From the NCBI GenBank assembly GCA_963781425.1, contig CAWAGX010000020.1, forward strand, positions 376,408-440,407: DNA of 64,000 bases. Reading direction: 5' to 3'. A program made the position numbers and the translations under genes. Below the pieces are notes generated by a model that was not told the DNA's origin, made no database searches, and saw nothing but the letters and a program-made list of their open reading frames with translations. This stretch comes from an uncultured Actinomycetes bacterium. Its GTDB lineage: Bacteria; Actinomycetota; Acidimicrobiia; IMCC26256; PALSA-610. This document shows, piece after piece, positions 4,904 through 37,580 of this stretch; the first letter of the stretch is position 1; each line of letters starts with the position of its first letter.

Positions 4904-7264
4904 TCAGATGTCGATGGCGTCGGCGTCGGCGCGGTCCTCGGGCGCGGACATGCTCGCGAAGACGGGCGGCGGCTCGCGCCACGGGTCGTCGATCCGACCC
5001 GCTTCCGCGTTGCGCACGGCCGTCCACACGCGTTCCGGTGTGCACGGGATGTCGATGTGGCGGATGCCGAGATGCTTGAGCGCGTCGATCACGGCGCTCT
5101 GCACCGCAGGCGTCGACCCGATCGTCCCCGACTCGCCGATCCCCTTCGCGCCCAGCTCGTTGCGCGGCGACGGCGTCTCGGTGTTCGACGCCTCGAAGCT
5201 CGGGAGCTCCGCCGCGCTCGGCATCGCGTAGTCGGTGAGCGTCGACGTGAGCGGGTTGCCGTCCGCGTCGTAGACGTAATGCTCCCACAGCGCCTGCGCG
5301 ATGCCCTGCGCGATCCCGCCGTGCTGTTGGCCGGCCACGATCATCGGGTTGAGGATGCGGCCGCAGTCGTCGACTGCGACGTGACGCAAAGGCAGAACCA
5401 TCCCGGTGTCGAGATCGACCTCGACGACCGCAACGTGCGCGCCGAACGGGAACGTCGCGCCGTCTTGTGAGAACTCCGAGACCGCGTGCAGCGGCTCGTC
5501 GCCGGCGAGCTCGGCCCAGCTCAATGCACGCGCCGGCACACCGGCGACACCGATGCGGCCGTCGTCGGTGACAACGATGTCGTCGGGGTTCGCTTCGAGC
5601 ATCGTCGCGGCAACGTCCTTGGCGCGCGTGCGAGCACGCCCTCGGCCGCGTGCAACACCGCCGAGCCGCCGAGCTGCAACGAGCGGGACCCGCCGGTCCC
5701 GCCGCCTTGCGGGACGACCGCGGTGTCGGACTGCACGAAGCGCACATCCTCCAGCGGGATGTGCAACCGGTCGGCGACGATCATCGCGAACGACGTCGCG
5801 TGGCCTTGGCCGTGCGCGGAGGTGCCGACGTGGATGGTCGCGGTGCCGTCGTCGTTGACCGTCACCGATGCGTACTCCCCGCCTCCCCCGCCGGCGGTGA
5901 TCTCGACGTACGCGCTCACACCGATGCCGAGCAACCGGCGGTCGCCGCCCACCCGGCGCGCCCGTTGCTCGCGGCGTAGCTCGTCGTAACCCGCGACCCG
6001 CAACGCCTCGGTCAACGCGCCGTCGTAATCGCCGCTGTCGTAGTCCGCGCGCATGACGGTCGTGTACGGGAACTCGTCGGGCTGCAGGAAGTTGCGGCGC
6101 CGCATCTCGATCGGGTCGATGCCGAGGTCGGCCGCCGCGATGTCCATCATGCGCTCGAGCATCGCCGCCGCCTCGGGACGGCCCGCGCCCCGGAACGCGC
6201 CCATCGGCGTGGTGTTCGTCAGCGCGATCGCGCACTCGTAGGAGATCTTGGGGATGCGGTAGACGCCCTGGGCCATGATGCGTGTCGGCCCCATCGCGAG
6301 CGCGCCGCCGAATCCCGCGTACGCGCCGGCGTCGCCGACGATGCGCACCCGCATCCCGACGATCGTGCCGTCACGCTTGCACCCGAGCTCGACGTATTGC
6401 ACCTGCCCGCGCCCGTGCGGCATCGCGACCAGGTTCTCGGAACGGGTCTCGACCCACTTCACCGGCCGTTGCAACCGGCGCGCGGCCGCGACCGCGACGC
6501 AGTGCTCGGCCGCGAGCCCGGGTTTGCCGCCGAACGCACCACCGACGTGCGGCGCGACGACGCGCACCCGCGCCGGGTCGAGGTCGAACATCTCCGCGAC
6601 CCGGTTGGCGAAACCGTGCGGCATCTGGGTGGACACGTACACGGTGAGCTCGTGCCCGGCGCCGTCGTCGCCGGGCACCACTGCGATCGCGCTCGCCCTC
6701 CATCGGCATCACCGCGATGCGCTGGTTCTCGACGCGCGCCCGCGCGACGACGTCGGCACCGGCGAGCACGTCGTCTGCCGAACGGGGTTGGATCGCGGCG
6801 GCGAGGTTCGTGCCGAGCTCCTCGAACTGCAGCGGCGCGTCCGGCGCGAGCGCGGCTTCGGGATCGGCGACCGCCGGGAGCGGGTCGTACTCGACGATCA
6901 CCGCCTCCGCCGCGTCCACGGCCGCGGTGCGCGTCTCGGCGAGCACGGCCGCAACGCAGTCGCCGACGAACCGCACCTTGCCCTCGGCGAGCGGCGGCCG
7001 CTTGCACGCGTCGTTGAGCGTCATCAGCCCGGCGTAGGGCGGGAGCTGCAGGTCGTCGGCGGTGAACACGGCGGCGACACCGGGCATCGCGCGGGCTTCG
7101 TCGGCGTCGATCGACATGATCCGCGCGTGCGCGTACGTCGAGCGCACGAACACGAGATGCAGCGCTCCCTCGAGCGGCAGGTCGTCGACGAACCGGGCGT
7201 CACCGACGAGCAGGTCGGGGTCTTCGACGCGCCTGACGGCGGTGCCGAGGATGGAGCCGGGCAT
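4904..7264 (-). pseudogene. xanthine dehydrogenase/CO dehydrogenase family molybdopterin-binding large subunit (CoxL-like), two frameshifts
   Basis: The gene is spread over three minus-strand ORFs. 6371..7264: MPGSILGTAVRRVEDPDLLVGDARFVDDL ... ENQRIAVMPMEG. 5521..6681: ELTVYVSTQMPHGF ... AFRGAGRPEAA ... GTSAHGQGHAT ... QGGGTGGSRS. 4904..6235: VAVDDCGRILNPMIVAGQQHGGIAQGI ... GAKGIGESG. Junctions are near 6675 and 5635. Confidence 0.9.
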
Positions 7265-7351
7265 CGCCCGACCCTAGCGACCCCGCCCGATCGCGACGCC
7301 GGCCCGCACCATCGTGGTGCGGGCCGGTACGACGATCAGGCAACGGGTAAG

Positions 7352-8171
7352 TCAATCGTCGTTGCCGCCGCCGGGGTGAACGGTCTGCGCCTTGCCGTGC
7401 TCGACGCCCGAGTTGCCCTGGCCGTTGTCGGCGCCATTGCCTTGGCCGTTGCCGCCGTGACCCACGCCGGTCGGCGGCGTGCTCTCGTTGCCGTCACCGT
7501 CGCCGTCGCCCGCCTCCCCGTTGTTCCCGGGGACCGTCGTGCCAGTCGTCGGGCAGGCCTTGCCCTGTGACTTCCCGCCCGACGCGATGTCGGCCACCGC
7601 GTGGCCGTGCGCACAGCCCTCGAGATCGGGATCGTGCGCGACATCCGACACTTCGCCGCCGTGATTGTCCTTGTGCACCGTCGTGGACGTCGCTGCTCCC
7701 GGCACACTCGTGGACGAGCCATTGACCGTCGTGTGCTTCGTGCGCTCGTCGTCGTGCGGCTTGTTCTTCTTGACGTGCTTGTTCGCGCGAGGCATGCGCG
7801 GGGCTGCCGACACCGATGTGCGACACCGCGTCCTGCACGGGTGCAGGGAGCGCGCCGGCGACGGCGAGGCCGCCGGTCGCGGCGACGACTGCCGCGGTCG
7901 CGGCGCCCACCTTGGCGATGATCGAAGAACGCATCCGTTCGAACCTCCGGGCCGAGAGCGTGGCGACCGGCTCGGGGGTCCCGATGAACGCCGCCAGGGC
8001 GGCGCCGACTGCCGGCGGGGTCGAGGCGTACGCAGCCCGCATGTCGCCGATCGTCTCGGCGAGCCGGGGGTCGACGTCCGCACCGGTGCCCGCGAGGAGG
8101 GCGTCGGTGGCGGCGTCGTCGAGGTCGTGGGGCTCGTCCATCTCACTCCCGTCAACGTCGTCCGGGCTCAT
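7352..8171 (-). pseudogene. membrane protein cotranscribed with the ECF sigma factor (putative anti-sigma factor), one frameshift
   Basis: ATG 8171 overlaps the sigma-factor stop (ATGA). ORF 7494..8171 gives an acidic N-terminus and one TM helix (IIAKVGAATAAVVAATGGLAVAGAL). The Gly/Asn/Asp-rich extracytoplasmic tail continues in ORF 7352..8155, with the frame switch near 7800. The role is inferred from position only. Confidence 0.45.
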
Positions 8172-8725
8172 TGCGGTACGCCCTCCTCGGAAGAAAGAGC
8201 CCGGCGCAGGCTCGCCAGACCCCGTCGCTGGAGCGCTTTCACCGCCTCGTAGCCCTTCCCGAGCACGGCCGCGGTCTCCTCGACCGAGAGGTCGCCGACG
8301 ACGCGCAGCAACAGCACGTCGCGCTGCTCCGGCGAGACGAGGGCGAGGAGGGTTTCCACACGTTCGTGCGCGAGGCGGGCGACGACATCGTCCTCGACGT
8401 CACCGCCGACGGGATCGCCCGCGGCAGCGAGTGCGACCTCGACGACGCGGCGCCGACGGCGACGGGCGTCGTCGATTCCGGCGTTGTGCGCGATCGAGAA
8501 GAGCCACGACCGGAACCGCCCGCCGTCGCCTTCGAACGTGTGCAGGGTCCGGAAGGCCCGCACGAAGACGTCGTTTGCCACACCTTCGGGATCGCTCACG
8601 CCGCGGGCGCGGAGGTAGCCCGCCACCGCCGCTCCGGTCGCGCGGAAGAGCTCCTCGAAGCCTTGGGCCTCGCCGGCTCGCGCCCGATCGAGCGCGCGGT
8701 CGAGGCTGCGCCGCGTGGTGGTCAC
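8168..8725 (-). CDS. ECF-type RNA polymerase sigma-70 family factor
   Basis: Intact 185-codon ORF with a GTG start. Region 2 (DVFVRAFRTLHTFEGDGGRFRSWLFSIAHNAGIDDARRRRR) and region 4 (EQRDVLLLRVVGDLSVEETAAVLGKGYEAVKALQRRGLASLR) are recognisable. Confidence 0.9.
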   Translation of the reverse strand: MTTTRRSLDRALDRARAGEAQGFEELFRATGAAVAGYLRARGVSDPEGVANDVFVRAFRTLHTFEGDGGRFRSWLFSIAHNAGIDDARRRRRRVVEVALAAAGDPVGGDVEDDVVARLAHERVETLLALVSPEQRDVLLLRVVGDLSVEETAAVLGKGYEAVKALQRRGLASLRRALSSEEGVPQ

Positions 8726-9658
8726 TTGGGCTTATCGGAGGCGAGGCGCGCTCCCTGGAGTGTTCGCTTCGCCCCGGGAGCGATGCGCGAGACTCGATGC
8801 ACGTGGCAAACGCCCAGCCTCGCGTGGCTGATCCGCTACCTCGGCATCGACCACGGCGCCGATGCCTCGCGGTCGACGGACGCCCCGGGAGCTCGCGAAT
8901 CACACCGAGTCTCCCGACCGTTCTCGTACCGCGACCACCAAACCGAGAGCCCGTTTCGCCTCCCGAAACGCGCCCTCGACAGTTACGGAGATGTCACGGA
9001 AGACGCGTTCCCGACCCCGATCCGATTCTGAGCGTGGCGCGGCGAACACGCGCGTGCGCGCGCGCCTCGAAGCGGTTGCAACAGGACGTTTTCGCCGACA
9101 GCCGACTCGCTCTCGCGGTGCGTCACGAGGCTGCCGCGCAGACCGCGCGACCGGCGCGACGGGCGCGCACGCCAGAGGCGCGACCTTCAGTCGCCATCGA
9201 ACCGAAGACCGCCAGGTCGCGGCGGCGACGATGCCGGCCGACCCGTCGTCGGACCGGGGAGTCGCTTGCGATCGGACCGGGGCGGCGTGACCGGGCAGCC
9301 GCGCGCTGCGCCCGGCGACACTTCGACGATGCGTGCGCGTTGCGCGCGCGACGTGGGCCGAGCTCCGCAGTCACCTCGCGTGGCGCGGCCAGAGTTTTAC
9401 GGCGCGTACAGAAAGGTGGTCGATGTGCCTTCGGAGGACGTGATGGTGACGGGTCCGGCATTCGCCGCCGAGCGTGACGATCGGTGGCTCGGCGTGACAC
9501 TGGTCGGCTTTTACACGCAACAGACTGATTCCCGACGCAACCCGGACGATTGCCGAACAGCATTCCCTCAATTCTTCGACAACGGCTGTCGCGCGGCCCG
9601 TCGCGGAAGCCGAGACCGGCATGCCCCCCCGTGCACGGACTGTCGCAGGGCGCGTGCA

Positions 9659-26491: not shown

Positions 26492-27548
26492 TCAGAGCGG
26501 AGAGCTCGAAGGCGTCGAGCGTCTCGAGCGCCGCGATGACGCGCCGGAGCATCCCTCCTGTGAGCTGCCATGTGACGCGGGTCTTCGACGCTGAGTGCCC
26601 CCGCGGCCACGACCGGGTACACGAACCCGAACATCGTGGCGTAGCGGTACATCTCCCACGCCCAGTCGCGATCGGGCTGCCACGCCGAAGCTCGCGAGCT
26701 CCTCGAGATACGTGGAGAACAGGCGCTGCTGGTCCTCCGGGTCGCTCGACGTTCACGCTCTGGCTCACGAAGTACGCGACGTCGCGCGGCGCGACGCTGC
26801 GGTCGATCAGCTGCCAGTCGACCGCGATCACCTCGCCGGCGGGCGTGAGGAAGAGGTTGTCGAGCCGCCAGTCGGCGTGCGAGAGCACGTGCGGCCCGTC
26901 GCACAGCTTGGCGAACAGCGGCGCGATGCGCGCCGCGTAGGCATCGCCGAACGCGAGCGACCTGCTCGGTCATCTGCTCGGGGAAGAACTCCTGGACCCG
27001 CGGCCACGCCGTTTCGTACGCGAACGCGACCGCACCGGGATACGGGTCGTCGCACAGCCGCAGCAGGAACGCGCAGGTCGGCGAGCGTCGGGTCGTCCCA
27101 GAAGCGCGGCGTGCAGCTTGGCGAGCGTGCGCAACGCGGCGCCGCGTCGCGTCCACGTCGCATCCCGCGAGCTGGTCCTGGATCGCGCCGCGCGACGACA
27201 CGTCCTCGAGGAGCAGCACCGTGTCCTGCGTGGTCTCGTCGTGCTCGGCGTAGTAGCACTGCGGGATGCGCCGATCGGCGTCCGCGCCGAGAGCTGCGTG
27301 TAGAACCCGACCTCGCGCCCGTACATGTTGAGGATCGTCGCGACGAAGCGGCCCTCGTCGGTCGGCGCCGCCAGCTTGGCGATCATCGTGGCCGGGTCGG
27401 CGTCGCCGGTGAGCGTCAGCCGGAACAACGTGCCGACGAGGCCGACGCCGACGCCGATCGGCTCGCCGCGCACCGCCGTGACGTGCCGGCCGAGCGCGTC
27501 GCTCAGCCATTCGGGTGTGAGGTCGTCGAGCTTCTTGGGGATGGTCAT
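26492..27548 (-). pseudogene. APH/EcKinase-like phosphotransferase, many frameshifts; 3' end uncertain
   Basis: ATG 27548 overlaps the SDR stop (ATGA). MTIPKKLDDLTPEWLSDALGRHVTAVRGEPIGVGVGLVGTLFRLTL is in ORF 26970..27569. IPQCYYAEHDETTQDTVLLLEDVS is in ORF 26419..27510. The catalytic region LSHADWRLDNLFLTPAGEVIAVDWQLIDRSVAPRDVAYF is in ORF 26253..26888. The end is placed at TGA 26492-26494 on length grounds only. Confidence 0.7.
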
Positions 27549-28327
27549 CTCACTCCTGCCAGCAGCCATTCGGTGATGCGCCTGGGCGCTTCGGTCAACA
27601 TCGGGAACAACGCGTCCCGTTTCGGCAACCGTACGTGCCGCCGCTCACGCTCGATCGCATCGACCAGCGCGTCGACCACTGCATCGGTGTCGAGATCGAC
27701 CGACAGCCGGAGACGGGCGAGCCGCGCGAGGGCGCGCTCGCGTCGGTGCATGGCCCCGCAAGCTGTCCATCATCGAGCTCTCGACCGGGCCGATCTCGGC
27801 GAGCGTCGTCGTGACGTCCGTGCCCTTCAGCTCGGCGCGCAGCCCGGCCGTGAAGTGACTCAGCCCGGCCTTCGAGCTCGAGTACGGGAGGACGCCGGGC
27901 AACGCGTTCGTGCCGGCAAGCGACGAGACGTTCACGATGTGGCCGCCGCCACGCGTCTGCATGCCGGGGAGGATCGCGCGGCACAACAGGATCGGTGCGA
28001 GCAGGTTCACCTTGATGAGCTGCTCGATCTTGTCGGCCGGCAGCTCGGTCAGATCCGCCGGTGAGGTCGAGGCCGGCGTTGTTGACGAGGACGTCGACCG
28101 GGCCGTCGGCCTCGATACGGCGCGACGAGCGGCGCGATCGCCGAAGCATCGGCGAGGTCGGCGGGGTACGCATCGCCGCCGAGGTCGGCCGCGAGCTTGT
28201 CGAGCTGCTCGCGGGAGCGGGCGACGAGCCCGACCCGAGCACCGCGCTTCGCGCACTCCGTCGCCAGCGCCGCGCCGATGCCGCGCGACGCGCCGGTCAC
28301 GACGACCCGGGCACCGCTCAGGTTCAT
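27545..28327 (-). pseudogene. short-chain dehydrogenase/reductase (SDR), about three frameshifts
   Basis: ATG 28327 overlaps the upstream stop (ATGA). VVVTGASRGIGAA (ORF 28049..28597), VDVLVNNAG (ORF 27595..28242), HIVNVSSLAG ... LPYSSSKAGLSHF (ORF 27645..28388), and the tail in ORF 27545..27751. Confidence 0.85.
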
Positions 28328-29460
28328 TGCGCGACGGCCGCGGCTTCGCGGTCGCGTTCGATCGCGTTGAGCTCGCTGTACTCGACACTCGTGTCGACGA
28401 AGTCCTCGTACTCGATCACGCCCATCTCGGTGAAGCGCTCGCGCAACCAGCCGTCGCGGCCGTCGAGCAAGCCGAGCTTCTTGCAGTTCGGCACGATCTT
28501 GGCGAACAGCATCCGCTGGAAGAGGATCTCCTCCTCGCTGTTCTGGCGGATGAAGTACGGCATCATCGCCCGGGCCGACACGCCCAGCCGCTCCCACACC
28601 TCTTGGTGCAGGAACCGGTCGCGCATGCGCAGCGCGGCTTCGTAGACGAACTCCTGCCGCTCGCGCAGCTCGGCGCCGGAGATGCCGGCGTAGGCCTCCT
28701 GCAACGACAACACGCCGAACGCGACGTGGCGGGCCTCGTCACTCATCACGTACCGAATGAGCTGGCGGAGCAGCGGCTCGGACGTCGTCTGGTACATCGC
28801 ACCGAACGCCGCCAGCGCGAGCCCTTCGATCATGATCTGCATGCCGAGGTAGGTGATGTCCCAGCGCGAGTCGGCGAGCACGTCGTCGATGAGCGCGCCG
28901 AGGTGCACGTTGATCGGGTAGCGCGTCGCCATCTTCTCGTCGAGATAGCGCCCGAACACCTCGACGTGACGCGCCTCGTCCATCACCTGCGTCGACGCGT
29001 AGTACTTGGCGTCGATCCACGGCACGGTCTCGACGATGCGGGCCGTGCACAGCAATGCGCCCTGCTCGCCGTGCAGGAACTGGCTCGTGCGATGCGCGAG
29101 GTTCTCCATCGCGTACTGCACGAGCTCCTTCTCACCCCACTTCGCGACCGGTGAGCCGGGCTCGTCGACGAGCGCGCGCACGTACTGCATGCGCCGGTCG
29201 TTCTGCGAGAGCTCGACGGCCGTCCGCTCGGGGTTGACGTCGATCGACCAGTCGAGGTCTTTCGACCCGTTCCACTGCGAGACCTTGGCCTTCTCGTAGA
29301 GCTTGTCGAGCGCGGGCCGCGCGCCCTTGGCGTAGTCCCACGTGAACGTCGCGTCGAACGCGGAGCTCACCCCGTGTGCGATCGCGTCCTCGTCGGTGTT
29401 GACCTGGACAAGGATCGCCTCGAGGTCGTCGTGTGCTCGTACTTCCCGCATGGCGGGCAT
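28324..29460 (-). CDS. ferritin-like diiron-carboxylate protein (AurF-like diiron oxygenase family)
   Basis: Intact reading frame inside ORF 28324..29802 from ATG 29460 (or 29451). There are two E-x-x-H pairs (MDEARHVEVFG and MSDEARHVAFG) plus EGLALAAF, as in four-helix-bundle diiron oxygenases. Confidence 0.6.
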   Translation of the reverse strand: MPAMREVRAHDDLEAILVQVNTDEDAIAHGVSSAFDATFTWDYAKGARPALDKLYEKAKVSQWNGSKDLDWSIDVNPERTAVELSQNDRRMQYVRALVDEPGSPVAKWGEKELVQYAMENLAHRTSQFLHGEQGALLCTARIVETVPWIDAKYYASTQVMDEARHVEVFGRYLDEKMATRYPINVHLGALIDDVLADSRWDITYLGMQIMIEGLALAAFGAMYQTTSEPLLRQLIRYVMSDEARHVAFGVLSLQEAYAGISGAELRERQEFVYEAALRMRDRFLHQEVWERLGVSARAMMPYFIRQNSEEEILFQRMLFAKIVPNCKKLGLLDGRDGWLRERFTEMGVIEYEDFVDTSVEYSELNAIERDREAAAVAQ

Positions 29461-29536
29461 GCTCGCACGGTCGCGCGCAGGTGTCGATGGGCGGACGGGC
29501 GGCACGCAGGACATTCGGCACGAGGGCCGCCGCGGA

Positions 29537-30328
29537 TCACCGCAGGAAGTCGAGGATCTCCGGCAGCGCCTTCGCATCCTGGGCGAAGAAGGCGTGGCCG
29601 CCTTCGTAGACGCGCAGCTCGCTGTGCGGGATCCGGCCCGCGATGAACTCGCCGTTCGGCAGCGGGGCGATGCCGTCGTAACGACCGGACGCGACCAGGG
29701 TCGGGCACGTGATCCGCGAGAGGCGGTCGCACACGTCGTGCCCGGCGCGCGCTTGGAGCTGCTCGGCCTCGCCGCGGAGCTGGTCCTTGGTCTTGGCACC
29801 ACTTCGGCGCGCTGCCATCATCTCCACGAGACCGCGGTCGCCGGAATGCTCGGCGAGCCATTGCTTGTCGAAGCGCGTGTCGAGCAGCTTGACGGCACGC
29901 GCGGCACGTTCGGCTTCCGGCAACGTCTCGAGCTCGTGCAGTGGGTACGACGCACCGCCCGCGCCACCGGGCGAGGTGCAGCACAACACGAGCCGCTCGA
30001 CGCGCTCGGGCGCGGTCACCGCGAGCTCCTGCGCGACCATGCCGCCGAAGCTCACACCGAACACGCGGCAACGATCCCAGCCGAGGTGGTCGAGCAGCGC
30101 GGTCGCGTCCGCCGCGTAGTCGGCCATGGTGTACGGCCCGGGTGGGATCGACGTGCGGCCGAGCCCGCGCTGGTCGTGCGCGGCGACGTCGAAGCGCGCC
30201 GCGAACGGTTTGATCAGCAGCGCGCTCGTGGCCAGCGTCGATCCCGACCCGTTCAGGAACAACAGGCGAGGCCCGGCACCCGAGCGCTCGTAGTAGATGT
30301 CGATGCCGGTCGCGGCGACGGTGGGCAC
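29537..30328 (-). CDS. alpha/beta hydrolase
   Basis: Intact 263-codon ORF with a nucleophile elbow GVSFGG, HDQRGLGRT, and a C-terminal GGHAFF motif. Confidence 0.9.
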   Translation of the reverse strand: MPTVAATGIDIYYERSGAGPRLLFLNGSGSTLATSALLIKPFAARFDVAAHDQRGLGRTSIPPGPYTMADYAADATALLDHLGWDRCRVFGVSFGGMVAQELAVTAPERVERLVLCCTSPGGAGGASYPLHELETLPEAERAARAVKLLDTRFDKQWLAEHSGDRGLVEMMAARRSGAKTKDQLRGEAEQLQARAGHDVCDRLSRITCPTLVASGRYDGIAPLPNGEFIAGRIPHSELRVYEGGHAFFAQDAKALPEILDFLR

Positions 30329-30346
30329 GGCGGCGAGACTAGAGCG

Positions 30347-33300
30347 CTACGCGGGCACGACGGCGAAGACCCGCTGGGGTTCTGCAAAACCCTTGAGGCG
30401 CTGTGACCCGCGGTCGACGAACGCGATCCCGGGCACGTCTTGCTTCGTCAGGAGGCCGTGCGATGCCGCGGAGACGAGCACCTCGTCCGGGCTGCTGATC
30501 GCGCAGACCCGGGATGCGATGTTGACCGCGCTGCCGTAGACGGCGTCGCGTTCGCGCAACACGGAACCGTGGTGCACGCCGACGTGCAGCCGGAGCACGT
30601 CGCCCTGCGACGCGCGGACCGCAGCCAACCCGGCGTGCACCGCTTTGTCCGAGGATCGAAACAGCGCCACGAGCCCGTCGCCGAGGTTGATGCCCGGCAT
30701 CACCGCGCCCCCATGCTCGGCGATCGTCAGCCGCAATCGGCGTTCGAGCGATCGAGCCTTGTTGCGGTACTCGACGTCGCCCCACTCTTCGGTGAGGCGC
30801 GTCGAGTCGACGACGTCCAAGAACAACACGCTCGCCTGATCCGCGATCGGTTCGGCACCTGCTTCCGGGCGGCCGGCGCCCATGCCGAGTCGCTCGGCGA
30901 GCTGCCCGGCCTCGGTGAGGATCGGCCCCGCCGCGAGGCGCTCGAGCACCGGCAGCGCCTGGCGGAGCATCACGAGCGCGACGGCCGGGTCGCGGTCTGC
31001 CTCGAGCTGGGCGAGCCCGAGACGGGCGCGGGCACCCTCGGCGTGCGCGCCATGATCGTCGGCGAACTGGATCGCGTCGGCGAAACGACGGCGCGCGTAC
31101 GCCCCGCGTCCGAGCAACGCATGTCCCATGGCTGCCGCGCGCGACAGCAACACCGGCAGGCTGCTGGAGACGATCATCCCGCGCCCGATCGTCGCCTCGA
31201 GCAGATCCGTGGCCTTGGCCGCGAGCGCCGGGTCGTGGAGCTCGCGCGCGATCTCGATGGAGAGAATCGCCCAGTCCTGCGCGCCGAGGAGGGGCTGCGA
31301 CGGCATGCGCGGCATCTGCGGGAGTGCCTCGCGCCCCGCTTCTCCGCAGCGCACGGCCACGAGCGTGCGCAGCAGTGACGTCGTGATGCGTCCAAGATCG
31401 TCCGCGGTCTCGTCCCATCTCGCGAGGGCCGCCTTCGCGCCTTCGGCGTCGCCCCGGTCGAGACGAGCGAGCGCGAGCGCAGGCAGGAACAACCCCGCCG
31501 CCCAGAGATACCCCGACAATGCCTGTATGCGCAGGGCGCGATCCGCGTGTTCCTCGGCAGCGTTCAGATCGCCGCGCAGGATCGCGAGCGACACGCGCGC
31601 GGCCAGCACGAGACCGAACTCATACACGGACTGCACTTCTTCGGAATGGGCGGTTGCCCGCTCGACGGCCTTGTCGGCGTCGTAGAGCCGGCCCAACCAG
31701 AGCAGCGTGAGCGGCAGGCGGTAGGCGGGGCCCATCCGGCGCGTGGGGTCCTCGGCGAATCGCACGTGGGCCTCGCCGCGGCGGAGATCGTCGAGGGCAC
31801 GGTCGAGGTCGAGCGTGATCCAATGCGTGATTGCACGGGAGACGTATGCCTTGCCGGACGACGTGTGGAGCTCGAGCGGTTCGGAGATCTCCAGCGCGGC
31901 GCGATGGTCGTGCGCGCCTCCTCGACGCGTCCCTGCGACCATTGCGCCTGCGAGATGTCGACGAGGGCTTCGGCGGCGAGCGCCGGTGCCGACTTCCCGA
32001 GCGCCTCGACGAGGGCCTCCACCGCCTGCACCTCGGCGTGCGCGACGGGGCCTCCCGCAGTGAGGCACACGAGTCGATCGAGCGTCGCGCGCAACTCCCC
32101 CTCGAGGTCACCCGCGTTGTGGCCCAACTCGGCGGCCCGCTCGAAATCGCGCCGGCCACCATCGACGTCCAGCGCGAACTGGCGGCACTTCCCCACCGAC
32201 CAGTGCAGCGCCGCTTGCTCGGCGACCGACGCCGGAGCCGAACACCGCGGCTGCGCCGCGAGGACGGCCTTGAACAAGCCGGCCGCCTCCTCCCACGCGC
32301 AGAGGGCCGACGCCTGCCGGGCCGCCGACAGCGCGACCTCGGCGACCTCGTCGGCTTCGGCTTCCCCCCCTGCAAGCACGAGATGCCGCGCCACCGACAC
32401 CACGGACGACCCTTCGGGCGGTCCGAGCGCATGCGCGATCTCGGCATGCGCCCGCGCACGCGCCAGCGGGCCGATGCGGCGCATGAAGCGCGCGCGCACG
32501 AGCGGGTGGCTGAAGCGCAGGCTCATGCCGTCGACGATGAGGACGCCGGCCAGAAGTGCCTCGTCGACGAGCATGACAACCGTGCCCTCGTCCCAACGCC
32601 CCAGCCGGCGCAGCGATGCCAGCGCCAGGTCGGGGATGAGGAGCGCGGCCCATTCGAGCATCTCGACGCACGGCGCGGACAGCGACTCCATCCGAGCATC
32701 GATTGCCGTCTCGACGATCAGCGGCGCATCGACGATGCTGCCCGATCGCGCCAGCGCTTCGATCAGCAGCGGATTGCCGCCCGTCTGCTCCCAGACGTTG
32801 CCCGGCGTGAGATTCCTCCCGCCGAGACGACGGACAAGGTCCGCGGACTCCAACGCGTCGAGGCCCGCGAGCTCGACCGCCGCGCATCGGTGCTCGCGAC
32901 GGAGCGGTTCGATCTCCGCAGTCGGCCGCGCCGCGAGCAGGAGCAGGAGCCGCGTCGCGCGAAACCCGCCTTCGAGCCGATAGATGACGTGCCGTACGAG
33001 CGCGAGTGAGCTGGTGTCCGCCCACTGGAGGTCGTCGACGACGAGGAGCAGTGGCCGGCGGGCCGCCGCTTCGAGCACGAGGTTGGCGAGGTCGAGCAGG
33101 AGCCCGACCGGGGCAATGTCGCTCAACGGCACGCGCGACCCCGCCTCGTCTTCCTCGCCGAGCGCCATCGTCAGCGCGCTCGGCACGCCCCCGCTGTCGT
33201 CCAGCAGGCGGGCGAGCGCGGGAAAGATGGCCTCGCGGAACGGCAGGAAGGGCAGCGACACGCCGTCGTACCCGCGGCCCGCGAGCGTGAGGAACCCGGA

Positions 33301-33468
33301 ACCGTGCGCGCCGTCACACAGTTCGGCGGCCAGCCGCGTCTTCCCGATGCCCGCCTCCCCGCTGAGAAGCACACATTGGGGTGCGCCTTGCGCGGCGAGC
33401 CGGAGACGCGCGCCGAGCCACGACAACTCCGCGTGCCGGCCGACGAGATCCACCGCCCTCGGCGCCAT
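30347..33468 (-). pseudogene. STAND-type P-loop ATPase (AAA_16-like) - helical/TPR-like repeats - C-terminal class III nucleotidyl cyclase; one frameshift
   Basis: ORF 31564..33468: VGRHAELSWLG ... VLLSGEAGIGKTRLA ... PLLLVVDDLQWAD. ORF 30347..32068: helical repeats, then ASVLFLDVVDSTRLTE ... PGINLGDGLVALF ... VYGSAVNIASRVC ... LKGFAEPQRVFAV. The frames join near 31915. Confidence 0.85.
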
Positions 33469-33612
33469 GAGCCCAAGTCTGGAGGAGATGCTTGCCGTAG
33501 GGCCATATTTTCGACGGCGTCACCGCATGGGATTCTCCTCGACGCGTGTTCGCTGCGCTGCTAGCAAGGTGTTGGCGGCAACAAAACGACGGTGCTGCGG
33601 GGAGGATTTCTC

Positions 33613-34290
33613 ATGTCGACAATGCCGTATTGGCTCAACAAGACCCCTGAGATGATCGCGATGGACCGCTATTTCAGTGCCGGGCCGAACCTCGTGGAGC
33701 GCTACAAGAAGACAATCAACAAGATCAACGCGGGACTCCCAGGTTCTTCAGATGCGCTCAACCTGGGAATGACGCCGGACGAGGTCGCCGACGCGTTCAC
33801 ACACTTCGACAAGGACTGGCTCAACAAGACCAATCCGAGCTCCGGCGGCAACTACTGGCCGCACGTGCCCACGTTCACGATCGTCACGTGGTTCAAGCAA
33901 GGAATCCTCGCGGCCGCGCAGAAGGGACTGGGCAGGATCGAGCTCGGCAACATTGGGGTGGTCCCCGACCCGATCTTCGACTCTGAGAAGAAGTACTCCG
34001 GGCTGCAAAACGCTGATCTCGATGGCGTGTTGCCGCTCAGTACCTCCTGGGTCTGCACGTCAGCACCCGGCACCGGAACCGTGGAAGTCGACGCGGTGCG
34101 CGGTCCATCCGTCGTGGAGCTCGTCATCTCGACGCCCTGGCCCAAGACCATGCAGTCCCGCCTCTGGGGCATCGTGCAGCCGCTGCTCGACGAGCTCTGG
34201 ATCCAGATCCACGGGCCTGGACCGGTGATCGACATCCGCCCGGAGTCCGAGTCGGACGATTCATCGGACACGTCGAAACAGCCTTCGTAG
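33613..34290 (+). CDS. orphan hypothetical protein (225 aa), compositionally atypical
   Basis: ATG 33613 lies 6 nt after a perfect GGAGGA (33601-33606). Intact ORF with no signal peptide and no recognisable motif. It uses many A/T-ending codons (aca, tat, agt, gga, cca, tct, tca, gat). Two hand-counted 120-nt samples gave 53% and 62% G+C. Confidence 0.6.
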   Translation: MSTMPYWLNKTPEMIAMDRYFSAGPNLVERYKKTINKINAGLPGSSDALNLGMTPDEVADAFTHFDKDWLNKTNPSSGGNYWPHVPTFTIVTWFKQGILAAAQKGLGRIELGNIGVVPDPIFDSEKKYSGLQNADLDGVLPLSTSWVCTSAPGTGTVEVDAVRGPSVVELVISTPWPKTMQSRLWGIVQPLLDELWIQIHGPGPVIDIRPESESDDSSDTSKQPS

Positions 34291-34505
34291 GTCGCGCGAC
34301 CCCCCATCGACGATCCCCACGGGTGACGTCCGTCACCTGCCCTCAGGTTGCGGGATTGCGGGGACGAAACGCTTCTTGCTGCAACGGATAGCAGCACGGA
34401 CGAAGCGAAGATCCATCACCTGCAAGTTGGTCGCCTCGGTGATGGGGAGCTAGTGGCGAACCCGGCGTCCTTCCGGCTCACCAACGGAGTGGAAGAGGGT
34501 TCGTC

Positions 34506-36353
34506 ATGGAAGCGTTCGCTGCTCGGGCGCCTCAGGGTCGGATTCGGGTGTGGCGGGGTGCGACCGGCGGAAGCGGTCGTACCTACGCTGCCCTCGCGGT
34601 CACGCTCGCCGTTCTGGGTGCCGCGTTCGTGTCACCGGGTGCGGCTGCGACCCGGGCCACGGCCGTCTCCGACCGCATGGTGCACGTGATCGTGACCGGC
34701 GCACCCGGCGCCGCGAGCACCGCGTCGCAGGTCGTGCAGAGCGCCGGCGGACACGTGCTGCACGCGCTGCCGATCGTGCACGGCTTCGACGCCGTCATCC
34801 CGGCGGGCGCGATCGGTCGGGTAGCGGCGGCCAATGGCGTCCGCAGCGTGACGCCCGACGTCGGGGTGCACCTCAACGGTGCGGCACCGCCGGACCCGAC
34901 GAACTGGCCGGGCGCCGCACGCTATGACCAGGAGCGGTATCCCGGATCGTTGTACAACGTCGCCCGCCAGATCAACGCCGACGACATGTGGGACCACGAA
35001 TACACCGGCAAGGGCGTCGGGGTGGCGTTGATCGACTCCGGTGTGGCGCCGGTCCCCGGCATCGCCGCCAACCTCGTGAACGGTCCGGATCTGTCGCTGG
35101 ACGCGACCGGCGGCCCCGACGACGGCATCGACGCCTTCGGGCACGGCACCCACATGGCCGGCATCATCGCCGGCCGCGAGCCGGGCCTGCCGACCAAGGG
35201 TCACGACATCCGCGACGCCGCCAAGCGCCGCTTCGCCGGCATCGCCCCCAACGCCAAGGTCATCAATGTGAAGGTCGCGACCGCCGACGGTTCGGTGGAC
35301 GTGTCGCAGGTGATCGCGGGGATCAACTGGGTGGTCGAGCACCGCGACGACCCGGCAATGAACATCCGGGTGCTGAACCTGTCGTTCGGCACCGATGGCG
35401 TGCAGCCGTACCTCCTCGATCCCCTCACCTACGCGGTCGAGGTGGCGTGGCGGGCCGGGATCGTGGTGGTGGTCGCGGCCGGCAACAACGGGATCGATCA
35501 CCCGCAGCTCAACAACCCGGCCTATGACCCGTTCGTGCTCGCGGTCGGCGCCCAGGACCAAAACGGTTCGACCGACGCCAGCAACGACGTGATTGCCGAC
35601 TTCTCGAGCCGCGGCAACAGCACCCGCCGACCCGACCTTGTCATGCCCGGCCGGTCGATCGTCAGCTTGCGTGACCCGGGCAGCGTCATCGACACCGCCT
35701 ACGCCGGCGCGCAGGTCGGCGACGACGAGTTCAAGGGCAGCGGCACCTCCCAATCGGCAGCCGTGCTGTCGGGCGCGGTCGCGCTGATGCTCCAGCGCTT
35801 CCCCAACCTCACGCCCGACCAGGTCAAAGCGGCGCTGGGCGCGTCCGGCCGGGTCCTCAAGACCAGCGCCGGGCAAGTCCTCGACCAGGGTCTCAAGACC
35901 GTCGACGTGAATCAGGCCTCGTCGAAAGTCGGGGACGTGATGTCGGGCAAGATCGCCTCCATGCAGAACTTCACGCCCGCGACCGGCCTCGGTTCGCTCG
36001 ACGCGGCCCGGGGGAGCTACCACCTCGTCGACAGCGAGACCGGTGCGGTCCTCGAAGGCGAGATCGACGTCACGGGTGCCGCGTGGGATCCCGTGACCTG
36101 GACCGCCGACTCGTTGGCGGGACGGACCTGGAGCGGCGACAACTGGATGGGCCGGACCTGGAGCGGACGCACCTGGTCGGGTCGCACCTGGTCGGGACGC
36201 ACCTGGAGCGGCGACGCCTACAACGGCCGGACCTGGAGCGGACGCACCTGGAGCGGGGGCGACTGGTCGGGACGGACCTGGTCAGGACGGACCTGGTCGG
36301 GACGGTCCTGGTCGTCAGCCGACCTCGACCCCACCGCCAGCTCCGGCGCCTGA
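34506..36353 (+). CDS. secreted subtilisin-like serine protease (peptidase S8) with I9-like propeptide and C-terminal GRTWS repeat tail
   Basis: Intact 615-codon ORF with signal/TM segment YAALAVTLAVLGAAFVSPGAAA and catalytic triad blocks VALIDSGV, HGTHMAGII and GTSQSAAVLSG. The tail carries 13 pentads. Confidence 0.9.
   Translation: MEAFAARAPQGRIRVWRGATGGSGRTYAALAVTLAVLGAAFVSPGAAATRATAVSDRMVHVIVTGAPGAASTASQVVQSAGGHVLHALPIVHGFDAVIPAGAIGRVAAANGVRSVTPDVGVHLNGAAPPDPTNWPGAARYDQERYPGSLYNVARQINADDMWDHEYTGKGVGVALIDSGVAPVPGIAANLVNGPDLSLDATGGPDDGIDAFGHGTHMAGIIAGREPGLPTKGHDIRDAAKRRFAGIAPNAKVINVKVATADGSVDVSQVIAGINWVVEHRDDPAMNIRVLNLSFGTDGVQPYLLDPLTYAVEVAWRAGIVVVVAAGNNGIDHPQLNNPAYDPFVLAVGAQDQNGSTDASNDVIADFSSRGNSTRRPDLVMPGRSIVSLRDPGSVIDTAYAGAQVGDDEFKGSGTSQSAAVLSGAVALMLQRFPNLTPDQVKAALGASGRVLKTSAGQVLDQGLKTVDVNQASSKVGDVMSGKIASMQNFTPATGLGSLDAARGSYHLVDSETGAVLEGEIDVTGAAWDPVTWTADSLAGRTWSGDNWMGRTWSGRTWSGRTWSGRTWSGDAYNGRTWSGRTWSGGDWSGRTWSGRTWSGRSWSSADLDPTASSGA
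36120..36314 (+). repeat. 13 tandem 15-nt units encoding (G-R-T-W-S)n inside the S8 protease gene
   Basis: GRTWS GDNWM GRTWS GRTWS GRTWS GRTWS GDAYN GRTWS GRTWS GGDWS GRTWS GRTWS GRSWS. Across the units Ser is encoded by AGC, TCG and TCA, and Arg by CGG and CGC. Confidence 0.95.
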
Positions 36354-36390
36354 CCCGAGCTCCGTCCACAACTCGCCACGCCTGGGAGGC

Positions 36391-37128
36391 ATGGTCGTGA
36401 AAACGCGCATCAAACAATCCGTGGGCGCGACGCGGGTGTCGATCCTGACGCTCGTCCTCGTCGACGGCGCCGCCGCATCCCTCATCGCGCTGGCATCGCA
36501 TCACGCCGCCCAGCCCCGCGGACCGATCGCCCTTGTGGTCCTCGCGTTGGCGTTCTTCGCCGCCGAAGTTTTCCCCATCCACTTCAGCGTCGGCGCCGAC
36601 CGCCACACCATCTCCTTCAACGAGCTGCCGCTCGCCATCGGGGTCGTGGTGCTGACACCGGCCGCGCTCGTCGCGAGCGTCGTGCTCGGCAGCGGCATCG
36701 CCCTGATCCTGCACCGCAACCAGCGCGGCACGAAGCTCGCCTTCAACCTGGCACAGCTCGCAGTCCAGGCGGTCGTTGCCGCCGCGGTATTCGACGTCGT
36801 CCGCCACGGCGGGCTCACATCGCTGTCGACCTCGCTCGCCGTCGCCCTCGCGGTCATCGCAGCCGACAGCGTCTCCGCCATCCTCGTCACCGGCGCGATC
36901 GCGCTCATGCGAGGAACAACCACCGGCGCGTACACACCGCGGGCACTGCTCGGCGGCGCGGCCGAATGCGTATGCAAGGCGCTGCTCGCCGTCGCAACGG
37001 TCGCCGCGCTGATCCACCACAGCAGCATCGGCCTCGTCGCCGCCATCGCCGGGAGCGCAACCATCTACCTCGTGTACCGGTACGCCGTCACGATGGGCGG
37101 GCAGCGGCCACTCGCCTCGGCCGGCTAG
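36391..37128 (+). CDS. polytopic membrane protein (about 6-7 TM), resembles the stand-alone N-terminal membrane sensor module of GGDEF/HD-GYP proteins
   Basis: Intact ORF with ATG 36391 or GTG 36397 after GGGAGG. Hydrophobic segments run throughout (LVVLALAFFAAEVFPIHF, LPLAIGVVVLTPAALVASVVLGSGIALIL, LAVALAVIAADSVSAILVTGAIAL). No soluble output domain. Confidence 0.6.
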   Translation: MVVKTRIKQSVGATRVSILTLVLVDGAAASLIALASHHAAQPRGPIALVVLALAFFAAEVFPIHFSVGADRHTISFNELPLAIGVVVLTPAALVASVVLGSGIALILHRNQRGTKLAFNLAQLAVQAVVAAAVFDVVRHGGLTSLSTSLAVALAVIAADSVSAILVTGAIALMRGTTTGAYTPRALLGGAAECVCKALLAVATVAALIHHSSIGLVAAIAGSATIYLVYRYAVTMGGQRPLASAG

Positions 37129-37580
37129 CGGCACTCTCGGTCGATACGAGCCCGGGCGTCCAGCACCGCACCGACGGTCGCGCCGAAGAGGACGTGGTCC
37201 GCCCACTGCGGTGCTTGCGGGAGCGCACGTATCGCGGGATAGCGACGTGCGAACACGCCCAGGTCGAGCGCGGCGATCGCGGCGCCGCCGAGCGCGCCGG
37301 TCGCGATGCGATGTCCCGGCGGCAGGGCGCGGGCGAGCACCGCGGTCCACGCGATCGACAGTGCAGTGTGAGCGACAAGACCGCGTGCGATCGACGCCTT
37401 GCCGAGCACTGTGCCCGCCGCCCTGGTCGAGGCCGTCAGCGGGATGCCCGTGCACAACGCGTGCAACGTCGACGGCGTCCCGCTCACCAGGCCGGCGACA
37501 CCAGCCGCGACCACGACGTCGGCGATACGTCTCTCCACGCGGGACAGATTGCTCCGTGAGGTGCGGTGGTGCACGCTCAT
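37125..37580 (-). CDS. small membrane protein (151 aa), hypothetical
   Basis: ATG 37580 within ORF 37125..38414. MSVHHRTSRSNLSRVERRIADVVVAAGVAGLVSG ... LVAHTALSIAWTAVLARAL ... ALGGAAIAALDLGVF. The upstream part of that long ORF is antisense to the methyltransferase and is not coding. Confidence 0.5.
   Translation of the reverse strand: MSVHHRTSRSNLSRVERRIADVVVAAGVAGLVSGTPSTLHALCTGIPLTASTRAAGTVLGKASIARGLVAHTALSIAWTAVLARALPPGHRIATGALGGAAIAALDLGVFARRYPAIRALPQAPQWADHVLFGATVGAVLDARARIDRECR

Follow-up and report, generated by a model that had tools for sequence, protein, structure and literature searches.

Two probably unrelated modules at one locus of an uncultured Acidimicrobiia bacterium: an orphan gene linked to a STAND-cyclase, and a subtilase operon with a c-di-GMP-II riboswitch

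Overview of the Locus

The locus described here lies within 64,000 nt of DNA (hereafter the window; G+C content 68.6%) from an uncultured Actinomycetes bacterium of the class Acidimicrobiia (assembly GCA_963781425.1, contig CAWAGX010000020.1, positions 376,408 to 440,407). A minus-strand gene with its ATG at 33468 encodes a STAND NTPase that ends in a class III nucleotide cyclase (the STAND-cyclase), and transcribed away from it are three plus-strand genes, which encode a small protein of no recognized family (the orphan), a secreted subtilase of peptidase family S8 (S8), and a polytopic membrane protein (Table 1). The original prediction, made from the letters of the sequence, described this trio as open reading frames (ORFs) free of frameshifts and divergent from the STAND-cyclase across 145 bp, and proposed that the four genes might form one functional unit of a conflict system. 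All three ORFs are indeed present and uninterrupted, and the divergent gap measures 144 nt; the single unit, in contrast, was not supported by comparison with other genomes. In its place, we consider it probable that two unrelated two-gene modules stand side by side, namely the STAND-cyclase with the orphan (module A) and S8 with the membrane protein, preceded by a cyclic di-GMP (c-di-GMP) class II riboswitch (module B). Both the riboswitch and the exact position of a frameshift in the STAND-cyclase gene had escaped the first reading.

Table 1. Features of the locus, in window coordinates.
Feature	Position	Strand	Basis
Module A: STAND-cyclase and orphan	30347-34290		
Window-specific segment, 4,013 bp, solely STAND-cyclase and orphan	30329..34341	.	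blastn against L021, tblastn synteny
STAND-cyclase: AAA_16 NTPase, MalT-like tetratricopeptide repeat (TPR) region, C-terminal class III cyclase	30347..33468	-	Pfam
Divergent intergenic region between STAND-cyclase and orphan, 144 nt, carrying the orphan Shine-Dalgarno sequence	33469..33612	.	sequence, L051 alignment
Orphan, 225-aa soluble protein, STAND-cyclase partner	33613..34290	+	homologues, adjacency, purifying selection, AlphaFold2 (AF2) model
Module B: c-di-GMP-II riboswitch, S8, and membrane protein	34392-37128		
c-di-GMP-II riboswitch aptamer	34392..34476	+	RF01786 covariance model
Predicted expression platform	34453..34507	+	minimum free energy (MFE) fold, RNAalifold consensus of five loci
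Secreted S8 subtilase, 615 aa, GRTWS repeat tail	34506..36353	+	Pfam, alignment, repeat and hydrophobicity scans
Stand-alone polytopic membrane module, 245 aa, MASE9-like	36391..37128	+	hhalign, tblastn, Pfam, contexts

Linkage of the Orphan to the STAND-Cyclase

Co-occurrence was counted from the orphan side, in loci retrieved with the orphan as query, and 41 loci were informative with respect to adjacency (16 from genomes, 23 from metagenomes, and the loci L050 and L051); near-duplicates exist among the contigs, and the 41 loci therefore represent fewer independent lineages. A STAND-cyclase adjoins the orphan in 40 of these 41 loci, lying directly upstream on the same strand in 39, with the divergent arrangement found in the window and in L051. 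Among species-representative genomes, 15 of 16 loci place the STAND-cyclase 40-90 bp upstream of the orphan on the same strand, the sole exception being L016, a 3.8-kb contig of a Microlunatus metagenome-assembled genome (MAG). Metagenome contigs supplied 25 loci, in which the C-terminus of a cyclase was detected directly upstream of the orphan in 21 and, at a relaxed threshold, in two more; the last two contigs begin within the orphan gene and are uninformative, hence the pair is found in 23 of 23 contigs with upstream sequence. L050 likewise has the tandem arrangement, and L051 matches the window at 76% nucleotide identity over 1,260 bp, with a STAND N-terminus 92% identical and an intergenic region retaining 80-83% nucleotide identity. 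The divergent junction itself is reproduced in an independent Logan assembly (L001). When the flanking ORFs of the orphan loci were clustered all against all, nothing besides the cyclase proved to be broadly conserved.

The two proteins also diverge in step. Over seven locus pairs, the amino-acid identities of the orphan and the STAND-cyclase move together (0.93/0.91, 0.84/0.84, 0.75/0.74, 0.75/0.74, 0.72/0.68, 0.69/0.60, and 0.63/0.59, respectively), and ratios of nonsynonymous to synonymous divergence (dN/dS) of 0.13-0.45 over the same pairs indicate purifying selection on both genes. The tie between the orphan and the STAND-cyclase, which was one element of the original prediction, thus draws on adjacency, on parallel divergence, and on the joint presence or absence of the two genes relative to a close relative (L021; see below), and a functional tie between them is supported by these comparisons of sequence.

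Two further observations concern the cassette in other lineages. At L012:6779-10681 (+), cyclase and orphan form one ORF of 1,300 aa, the cyclase stop being out of frame relative to that of the close relative L005; the apparent fusion is either real or an indel error of the MAG assembly and, as the stop was lost through a frame change in a MAG, it was set aside and not counted as evidence. In a Microthrixaceae-like subclade (L008:10666-11172, L009, L012, and L013), the orphan is followed by a Pfam-less ORF of 168-185 aa, whose start overlaps the orphan stop by 4 nt in L008 and L009; this ORF could be a lineage-specific third component of the cassette.

A Cassette Inserted Into a Conserved Backbone

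The locus has a counterpart on a 778-kb contig of a close relative, L021, where the flanking proteins are 85-93% identical to those of the window. Gene order is common to the two (an AurF-like gene, an alpha/beta-hydrolase gene, S8, the membrane protein, a small minus-strand ORF, a methyltransferase gene, and onwards), and blastn aligns positions 26492-30328 of the window with 956-4832 of L021 (89%) and positions 34342-37524 with 5799-8982 (82%). Between these homologous flanks, the window holds the segment consisting solely of the STAND-cyclase and the orphan, and L021 holds 966 bp with an unrelated 192-aa ORF. Given these different contents, the slot between the hydrolase gene and the riboswitch seems variable, and, judging by the alignments, the cassette has been inserted between the alpha/beta-hydrolase gene and the S8 operon of an otherwise conserved backbone. 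The G+C content at third codon positions (GC3) is 0.82-0.85 in the cassette genes as against 0.88-0.89 in the backbone neighbors. The cyclase gene is inverted relative to the orphan in the window lineage and, with its frameshift of 1 nt, may be inactive here. A search for repeats flanking either the cassette or the inverted cyclase gene returned just short, chance-level matches, which explain neither the insertion nor the inversion.

This comparison bears directly on the proposal that all four genes constitute one conflict or defense unit, made up of a sensor-cyclase, a protease, and a membrane effector, in which the orphan would serve as a substrate, an inhibitor, or an immunity partner. In favor of such a unit, the two modules adjoin each other in the window and likewise in L051, whose sequence extends from the STAND N-terminus across the orphan to the riboswitch region; cyclic-nucleotide signaling, moreover, figures in both modules. 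No homologue of S8 or of the membrane protein, however, was found among the 41 loci that the orphan query retrieved, and the S8-membrane pair recurs in L018-L023 (the S8/membrane contigs with DNA) without either STAND-cyclase or orphan. The pair also has a cis-regulator of its own, the c-di-GMP-II riboswitch, which lies inside the sequence common to the window and L021. The original prediction had itself named S8 and membrane genes persisting in relatives that lack the cyclase gene as an outcome that would count against the unit, and L021 is such a relative: at the same locus, it keeps both genes and lacks the cassette. PADLOC adds no support either. A four-gene unit is very improbable, and modules A and B would have become neighbors through an accident of insertion.

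Several minor features of the slot and its left flank merit a record. The ORF of the L021 slot (L021:5160-5738, +) has a G+C content of 63%, and Pfam and PHROG scans of it were empty. A palindrome (GGTGACG-TC-CGTCACC, 34322-34337) lies 32 nt past the orphan stop, at the right edge of the window-specific segment, and a similar element exists in L051; the palindrome may represent either a hairpin resembling a terminator or a feature of the junction. Scans with promoter and terminator consensus sequences yielded nothing exceeding shuffled controls. On the left, the AurF-like ORF (492 aa, 28324-29802, -) overlaps the alpha/beta-hydrolase ORF (29537-30328, -) by 266 bp; the AurF-like call in L021 is 376 aa, which makes a start further downstream probable for the AurF-like gene. 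Only 18 nt separate the STAND-cyclase stop from the hydrolase start, so that following the inversion the cyclase may be co-transcribed with the hydrolase and AurF-like genes.

The STAND-Cyclase

Pfam detects AAA_16 (81.9 bits, cut-off 32.6) and Guanylate_cyc (PF00211, 38.1 bits) in the STAND-cyclase, as well as TPR_MalT at 27.9 bits, which is under the 45-bit cut-off. The succession of a P-loop nucleotide-binding oligomerization domain (NOD) and a repeat sensor region is that of a STAND NTPase, and the NTPase domain begins at residue 8 with no N-terminal extension. Pairing through an amyloid motif of the NLR/Bell type was considered and is ruled out by this direct opening. A 2026 survey of bacterial STAND sensors makes no mention of cyclases.

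The cyclase domain aligns with Ma1120 and Rv1900c, and its motifs FLDVVDST, LGDG, and AVNIASR are conserved across 30 homologues, all of which keep both metal-binding Asp residues, the transition-state Asn and Arg, and the terminal Lys. Cyclase activity is likely from these conserved catalytic residues. The Lys (adenylyl) or Glu (guanylyl) that canonically specifies the substrate was not found.

The reading frame of the STAND-cyclase is not intact, and a sequencing error is possible. A single base is missing near 31901-31903 (within 31889-31908), which breaks the gene into two frames (31564-33468 and 30347-32068), and restoring one base yields an ORF of 1,040 codons that is colinear with homologues without gaps. 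As the 515 codons past the break are still open and conserved, the lesion either arose very recently or stems from an error in assembly. The latter could still apply, though the window is otherwise free of frame breaks in the comparison with L021: over the ~12 kb common to both, the window has 0 and L021 at least 5.

The Orphan Protein

The orphan is preceded by a Shine-Dalgarno sequence, GGAGGA, at 33601-33606, with the ATG 6 nt further on, exactly as originally reported, and its start codon is backed by homologues that align from Met1. Scans of Pfam, NCBIfam, PADLOC, and PHROG were all empty, in line with the earlier impression of a protein without recognizable motif, and a hydrophobic segment was looked for and none was seen. 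The orphan had further been called low in G+C and clearly atypical in codon usage. The first description stands, its G+C content of 61.2-61.4% being the minimum of the window (69.1 +/- 2.6% over 27 window genes; z ~ -3); the second was overstated, since its GC3 of 0.82 is not unusual among window genes (0.866 +/- 0.040; z ~ -1.1). Homologues in genomes of 72% G+C have the same low-G+C pattern at codon positions 1 and 2, and the deficit at these positions reflects amino-acid composition.

Among 5.8 billion clustered proteins, 39 homologues of the orphan were found, those with taxonomic labels coming from Acidimicrobiia or Actinomycetota MAGs, and a profile search returned 87 representatives among 1.84 billion. 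No consistent Pfam domain emerged from 38 near and distant members, in which scattered single matches came from two long outliers. The orphan family is thus small, Pfam-less, and uncharacterized, with members from Acidimicrobiia/Actinomycetota. The AF2 model is confident (predicted local distance difference test [pLDDT] 82.7; predicted template modeling score [pTM] 0.77) and is helical at its N-terminus, followed by a three-stranded sheet and a closing C-terminal helix; Foldseek found no match for it with E under 0.4 in the PDB (best E 0.41, TM-score <= 0.17) or among the viral structures of BFVD. YajQ, which surfaced in a profile search of PDB sequences at E 1.9, was dismissed as noise.

Nine residues are invariant in the family (W7, H64, D68, W69, W82, K104, W146, C148, and R163), and these aromatic and charged side chains could line a ligand pocket. 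They form part of the case for regarding the orphan as the receptor of a cyclic nucleotide in an ordinary housekeeping pair, that is, as an adaptor or enzyme acting downstream instead of regulating the STAND protein; its position downstream of the cyclase in 39 loci, with a Shine-Dalgarno sequence of its own, fits that role as well. The predicted fold, on the other hand, matches neither CAP/CNB nor GAF nor any of the other folds known to bind nucleotides, and receptors of generic messengers require neither adjacency to, nor stepwise divergence with, one particular cyclase. A receptor of this kind is accordingly judged unlikely.

Is Module A a Defense System?

With the four-gene unit set aside, module A might still be an antiphage system of two genes, akin to Pycsar or Avs, in which the STAND protein would sense a phage protein, the fused cyclase would make a private cyclic nucleotide, and the orphan would act as a novel-fold effector activated by that nucleotide. 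The architecture of STAND, TPR region, and cyclase is compatible with this role, as are the presence/absence polymorphism at one locus with another gene in the same slot, the occurrence of the cassette at different genomic positions in different lineages, the fairly fast evolution of both genes, and the non-canonical substrate-specificity residues. Curated defense models contribute little more: the PADLOC matches are at noise level, with a faint similarity to PycC (E ~1e-3; 1e-3 with 0 significant stretches) and to PDC-S73 (E 0.0068 over 21 residues), and none concerns the orphan. Nor does the genomic company of the pair suggest defense, for its neighbors elsewhere are ordinary metabolic and regulatory genes (3-hydroxyacyl-CoA dehydrogenase, a hydrolase of the metallo-beta-lactamase fold, a GNAT, TetR, a SARP regulator, a P450, and a flavin monooxygenase). 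The orphan has neither a transmembrane (TM) segment nor a recognizable toxic or cyclic nucleoside monophosphate (cNMP)-binding domain, and fusions of an AAA_16/MalT-type STAND protein to a cyclase are generally known as ordinary actinobacterial signaling proteins. The pair therefore corresponds neither to Pycsar (a PycC-type cyclase with a cNMP-binding effector bearing a TM or TIR region) nor to known antiphage STAND systems such as Avs, as defined by curated models or defense islands. The conflict-system framing of the original prediction finds no backing here; given the polymorphism and the changing positions, a defense role for the pair is possible but unsupported, and an antiphage system in the full sense is rather improbable.

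A c-di-GMP-II Riboswitch Ahead of a Subtilase and a Sensor-Like Membrane Protein

Module B opens with a match to the Rfam family RF01786 (61.9 bits against a gathering score of 53.5; E 2e-11; model positions 1-84 of 84), situated 30 nt ahead of the S8 ATG inside the 215-nt gap between orphan and S8. The same riboswitch scores above the gathering threshold 5' of S8 in L021, L018, L019, and L049 (all four other loci for which that DNA is available), the L051 alignment also runs through it, and three pairs of its P2 stem carry compensatory changes. Its full-model score and its conserved 5'-leader position together identify it as a c-di-GMP-II riboswitch. In both the MFE and the consensus folds, the 3' part of the aptamer (34453-34463) pairs with 34497-34507, which comprises the 3' end of the S8 Shine-Dalgarno sequence and the first two bases of the AUG; this predicted helix would mask the end of the Shine-Dalgarno sequence and the start codon when no ligand is bound. 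From these models, we infer a translational ON switch operated by c-di-GMP.

S8 is a member of the S8 peptidase family (Pfam Peptidase_S8, PF00082; E 5.7e-42, 144 bits). The intact catalytic triad noted at the outset was recovered as D177, H213, and S415, which align, together with the oxyanion Asn (N327), with the solved subtilase 9ues_B. The N-terminal hydrophobic segment spans residues 28-46, and the repeat tail, also noted earlier, resolves into ~13 copies of a 15-bp period at 36118-36314 that encode GRTWS repeats. The best NCBIfam similarity is to the mycosin model TIGR03921, at 138.3 bits and far from its 278.75 cut-off, which leaves S8 outside that family.

The membrane protein belongs to a family of only 26 relatives and is predicted to have 6-8 hydrophobic helices, a count that encloses the 6-7 TM segments first proposed. 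S8 is directly upstream of its gene in nine of 11 contigs, down to ~47% identity; one of the remaining two lacks S8, and the other could not be determined. In L049 (1160-3637, -) and in the P0146 contig, a GGDEF-EAL gene (825 or 801 aa) is divergent to S8, and the membrane protein matches residues 9-232 of the 825-aa L049 protein with an hhalign probability of 99.9% (E 2.4e-33, 40% identity); tblastn against the same module gives 39% identity at E 5e-24. The resemblance to the sensor module of GGDEF/HD-GYP proteins that had been suspected is hence one of homology, and by this measure the membrane protein corresponds to the N-terminal sensor module of GGDEF-EAL proteins encoded on its own, lacking an output domain in the window, as had been stated. 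No GGDEF-EAL gene with such a module was found in the 64-kb window; the GGDEF-EAL paralogue next to the riboswitch-S8-membrane protein operon elsewhere suggests a local c-di-GMP circuit. With respect to Pfam MASE9 (PF20972), the window protein scores 12.5 bits against a cut-off of 24.3 (E 0.14) and formally falls outside the family, and MASE9 matches four of 11 members of the membrane-protein family, with a best E of 1.4e-4. A position N-terminal to c-di-GMP output domains, as expected of MASE9, is seen in the GGDEF-EAL protein of L049, whereas the window copy has no output domain. A structure model of the membrane protein was discarded as unusable (pLDDT 45.8).

Beyond the operon, a minus-strand ORF of ~150 aa (37125-37580) with one or more hydrophobic segments is convergent with the 245-aa gene, the stop of which it overlaps by 4 nt. 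The ORF shows a high in-frame GC3, is conserved in L021, and matches no family.

Proposed Working of the Two Modules

In the model that we favor for module A, the STAND-cyclase retains the layout of MalT (NOD, sensor, and C-terminal output), with a class III cyclase replacing the DNA-binding domain. A signal sensed via the TPR region would trigger nucleotide-dependent oligomerization, and oligomerization would bring the cyclase domains together as dimers and thereby switch on cyclic-nucleotide synthesis; class III cyclase domains work as dimers. The orphan would be a dedicated partner, one that most likely binds and gates the STAND protein, by analogy with the protein regulators of MalT, and less likely a receptor dedicated to the product of the cyclase. 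A direct protein partner is favored by how closely the two genes adjoin and by their parallel divergence. For the individual roles, a gating subunit of the STAND protein is about as apt to prove right as wrong, a receptor of a private messenger is a minor candidate, and a defense-type effector is quite doubtful. A bolder formulation would see here a new two-component cyclic-nucleotide system, in which the novel-fold orphan is either an obligate gating subunit of the STAND protein or the effector of a private, non-canonical cyclic nucleotide, and which could be a conflict or defense cassette moving between chromosomal slots of Acidimicrobiia; we hold this version to be improbable as well.

For module B, ligand binding would free the S8 ribosome-binding site, such that high c-di-GMP would turn on both protease and membrane protein. 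The stand-alone module might modulate a paralogous GGDEF-EAL enzyme or, equally speculatively, anchor the protease.

A number of points weigh against this account of the two modules. The frameshift in the window copy of the STAND-cyclase means that module A may be undergoing decay. When the window is compared with L051, dN/dS is 0.50 for the orphan (L051:376-1056) and 0.08 for the STAND N-terminus at equal dS, whereas tandem pairs of similar or lower dS give 0.18-0.19 for the orphan; the value of 0.50 points to relaxed or diversifying selection in the clade with the divergent arrangement and, taken with the frameshift, is compatible with relaxed constraint in the window lineage. The position of the canonical substrate Lys in the cyclase is occupied by a conserved GI(N/S)LGDG loop. 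Co-occurrence was counted in one direction, from orphan to cyclase, and we infer the role of the orphan with no domain, fold match, or fusion as a handle. The ON logic of the riboswitch derives from predicted folds of few related sequences, with a fold z-score of -1.57. Lastly, a cyclic mononucleotide made by module A might cross-talk with the c-di-GMP control of module B.

These results nevertheless correct a call of guilt by association, as an adjoining STAND protein is not in itself evidence of a conflict system. They also provide a testable pair, in that a rare, Pfam-less family is almost always found beside one clade of STAND-cyclases, and the pair offers a way to study the control of STAND-fused cyclases or the readout of their signal. 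Likewise, they place a c-di-GMP-II riboswitch in a high-G+C actinobacterial lineage, where it drives a secreted subtilase and a stand-alone MASE9-like module. The suggested circuit, wherein a sensor module is expressed apart from its enzyme, bears on the question of what MASE-type domains sense.

Comparison With Known Systems

The components of the locus are all of known kinds: a class III cyclase fused to a STAND protein, a c-di-GMP-II riboswitch, a subtilase, and a MASE-type module. Undescribed, as far as could be found, are a conserved partner of a STAND-cyclase with a predicted novel fold and an operon that unites a riboswitch, an S8 protease, and a stand-alone sensor.

Within module B, the riboswitch resembles other class II members of RF01786 in its 5'-leader position and full-length model match, but the genes under its control, in an Acidimicrobiia-like actinobacterium, encode a subtilase and a sensor-like membrane protein that stands alone. 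The c-di-GMP-II riboswitches studied in most depth come from Clostridia, and a search of the literature available to us returned no paper connecting this class with Actinobacteria or with subtilases. S8 is an actinobacterial S8 subtilase, as are the mycosins of type VII secretion systems (TIGR03921), from which it differs in having 615 aa and a GRTWS repeat tail; mycosins carry a C-terminal TM anchor. MASE9 is a promiscuous membrane sensor that is fused to HD-GYP, GGDEF, and GGDEF-EAL outputs and features a hairpin within the membrane as well as polar residues at the membrane core (Galperin & Chou, bioRxiv 10.1101/2021.11.05.467447). The membrane protein is similarly polytopic, with conserved polar residues inside the membrane and relatives fused to GGDEF-EAL outputs, yet it is encoded as a separate gene after a protease and has no output domain.

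Module A shares with Pycsar the pairing of a cyclase of the class III fold with a small partner in a two-gene cassette; unlike in Pycsar, the cyclase is fused to a STAND sensor, and the partner has no TM segment, TIR domain, or recognizable cNMP-binding domain. Class III cyclases fused to a STAND ATPase are known in Actinomycetota from the mycobacterial cyclase-ATPases Rv0386, Rv1358, and Rv2488c; in proteins of the Rv0386 type, the cyclase is N-terminal and a helix-turn-helix (HTH) domain is also present, as opposed to the C-terminal cyclase of the window protein. We know of no small, conserved partner gene reported for MalT/LAL-type proteins or for the mycobacterial cyclase-ATPases. In layout, the STAND-cyclase also resembles the STAND regulators of the MalT/LAL type, in which, as here, an AAA_16 NTPase is followed by a MalT-like TPR/SUPR sensor region and then by an output domain, the latter being a LuxR HTH at the C-terminus of MalT and a cyclase in the same position of the window protein.

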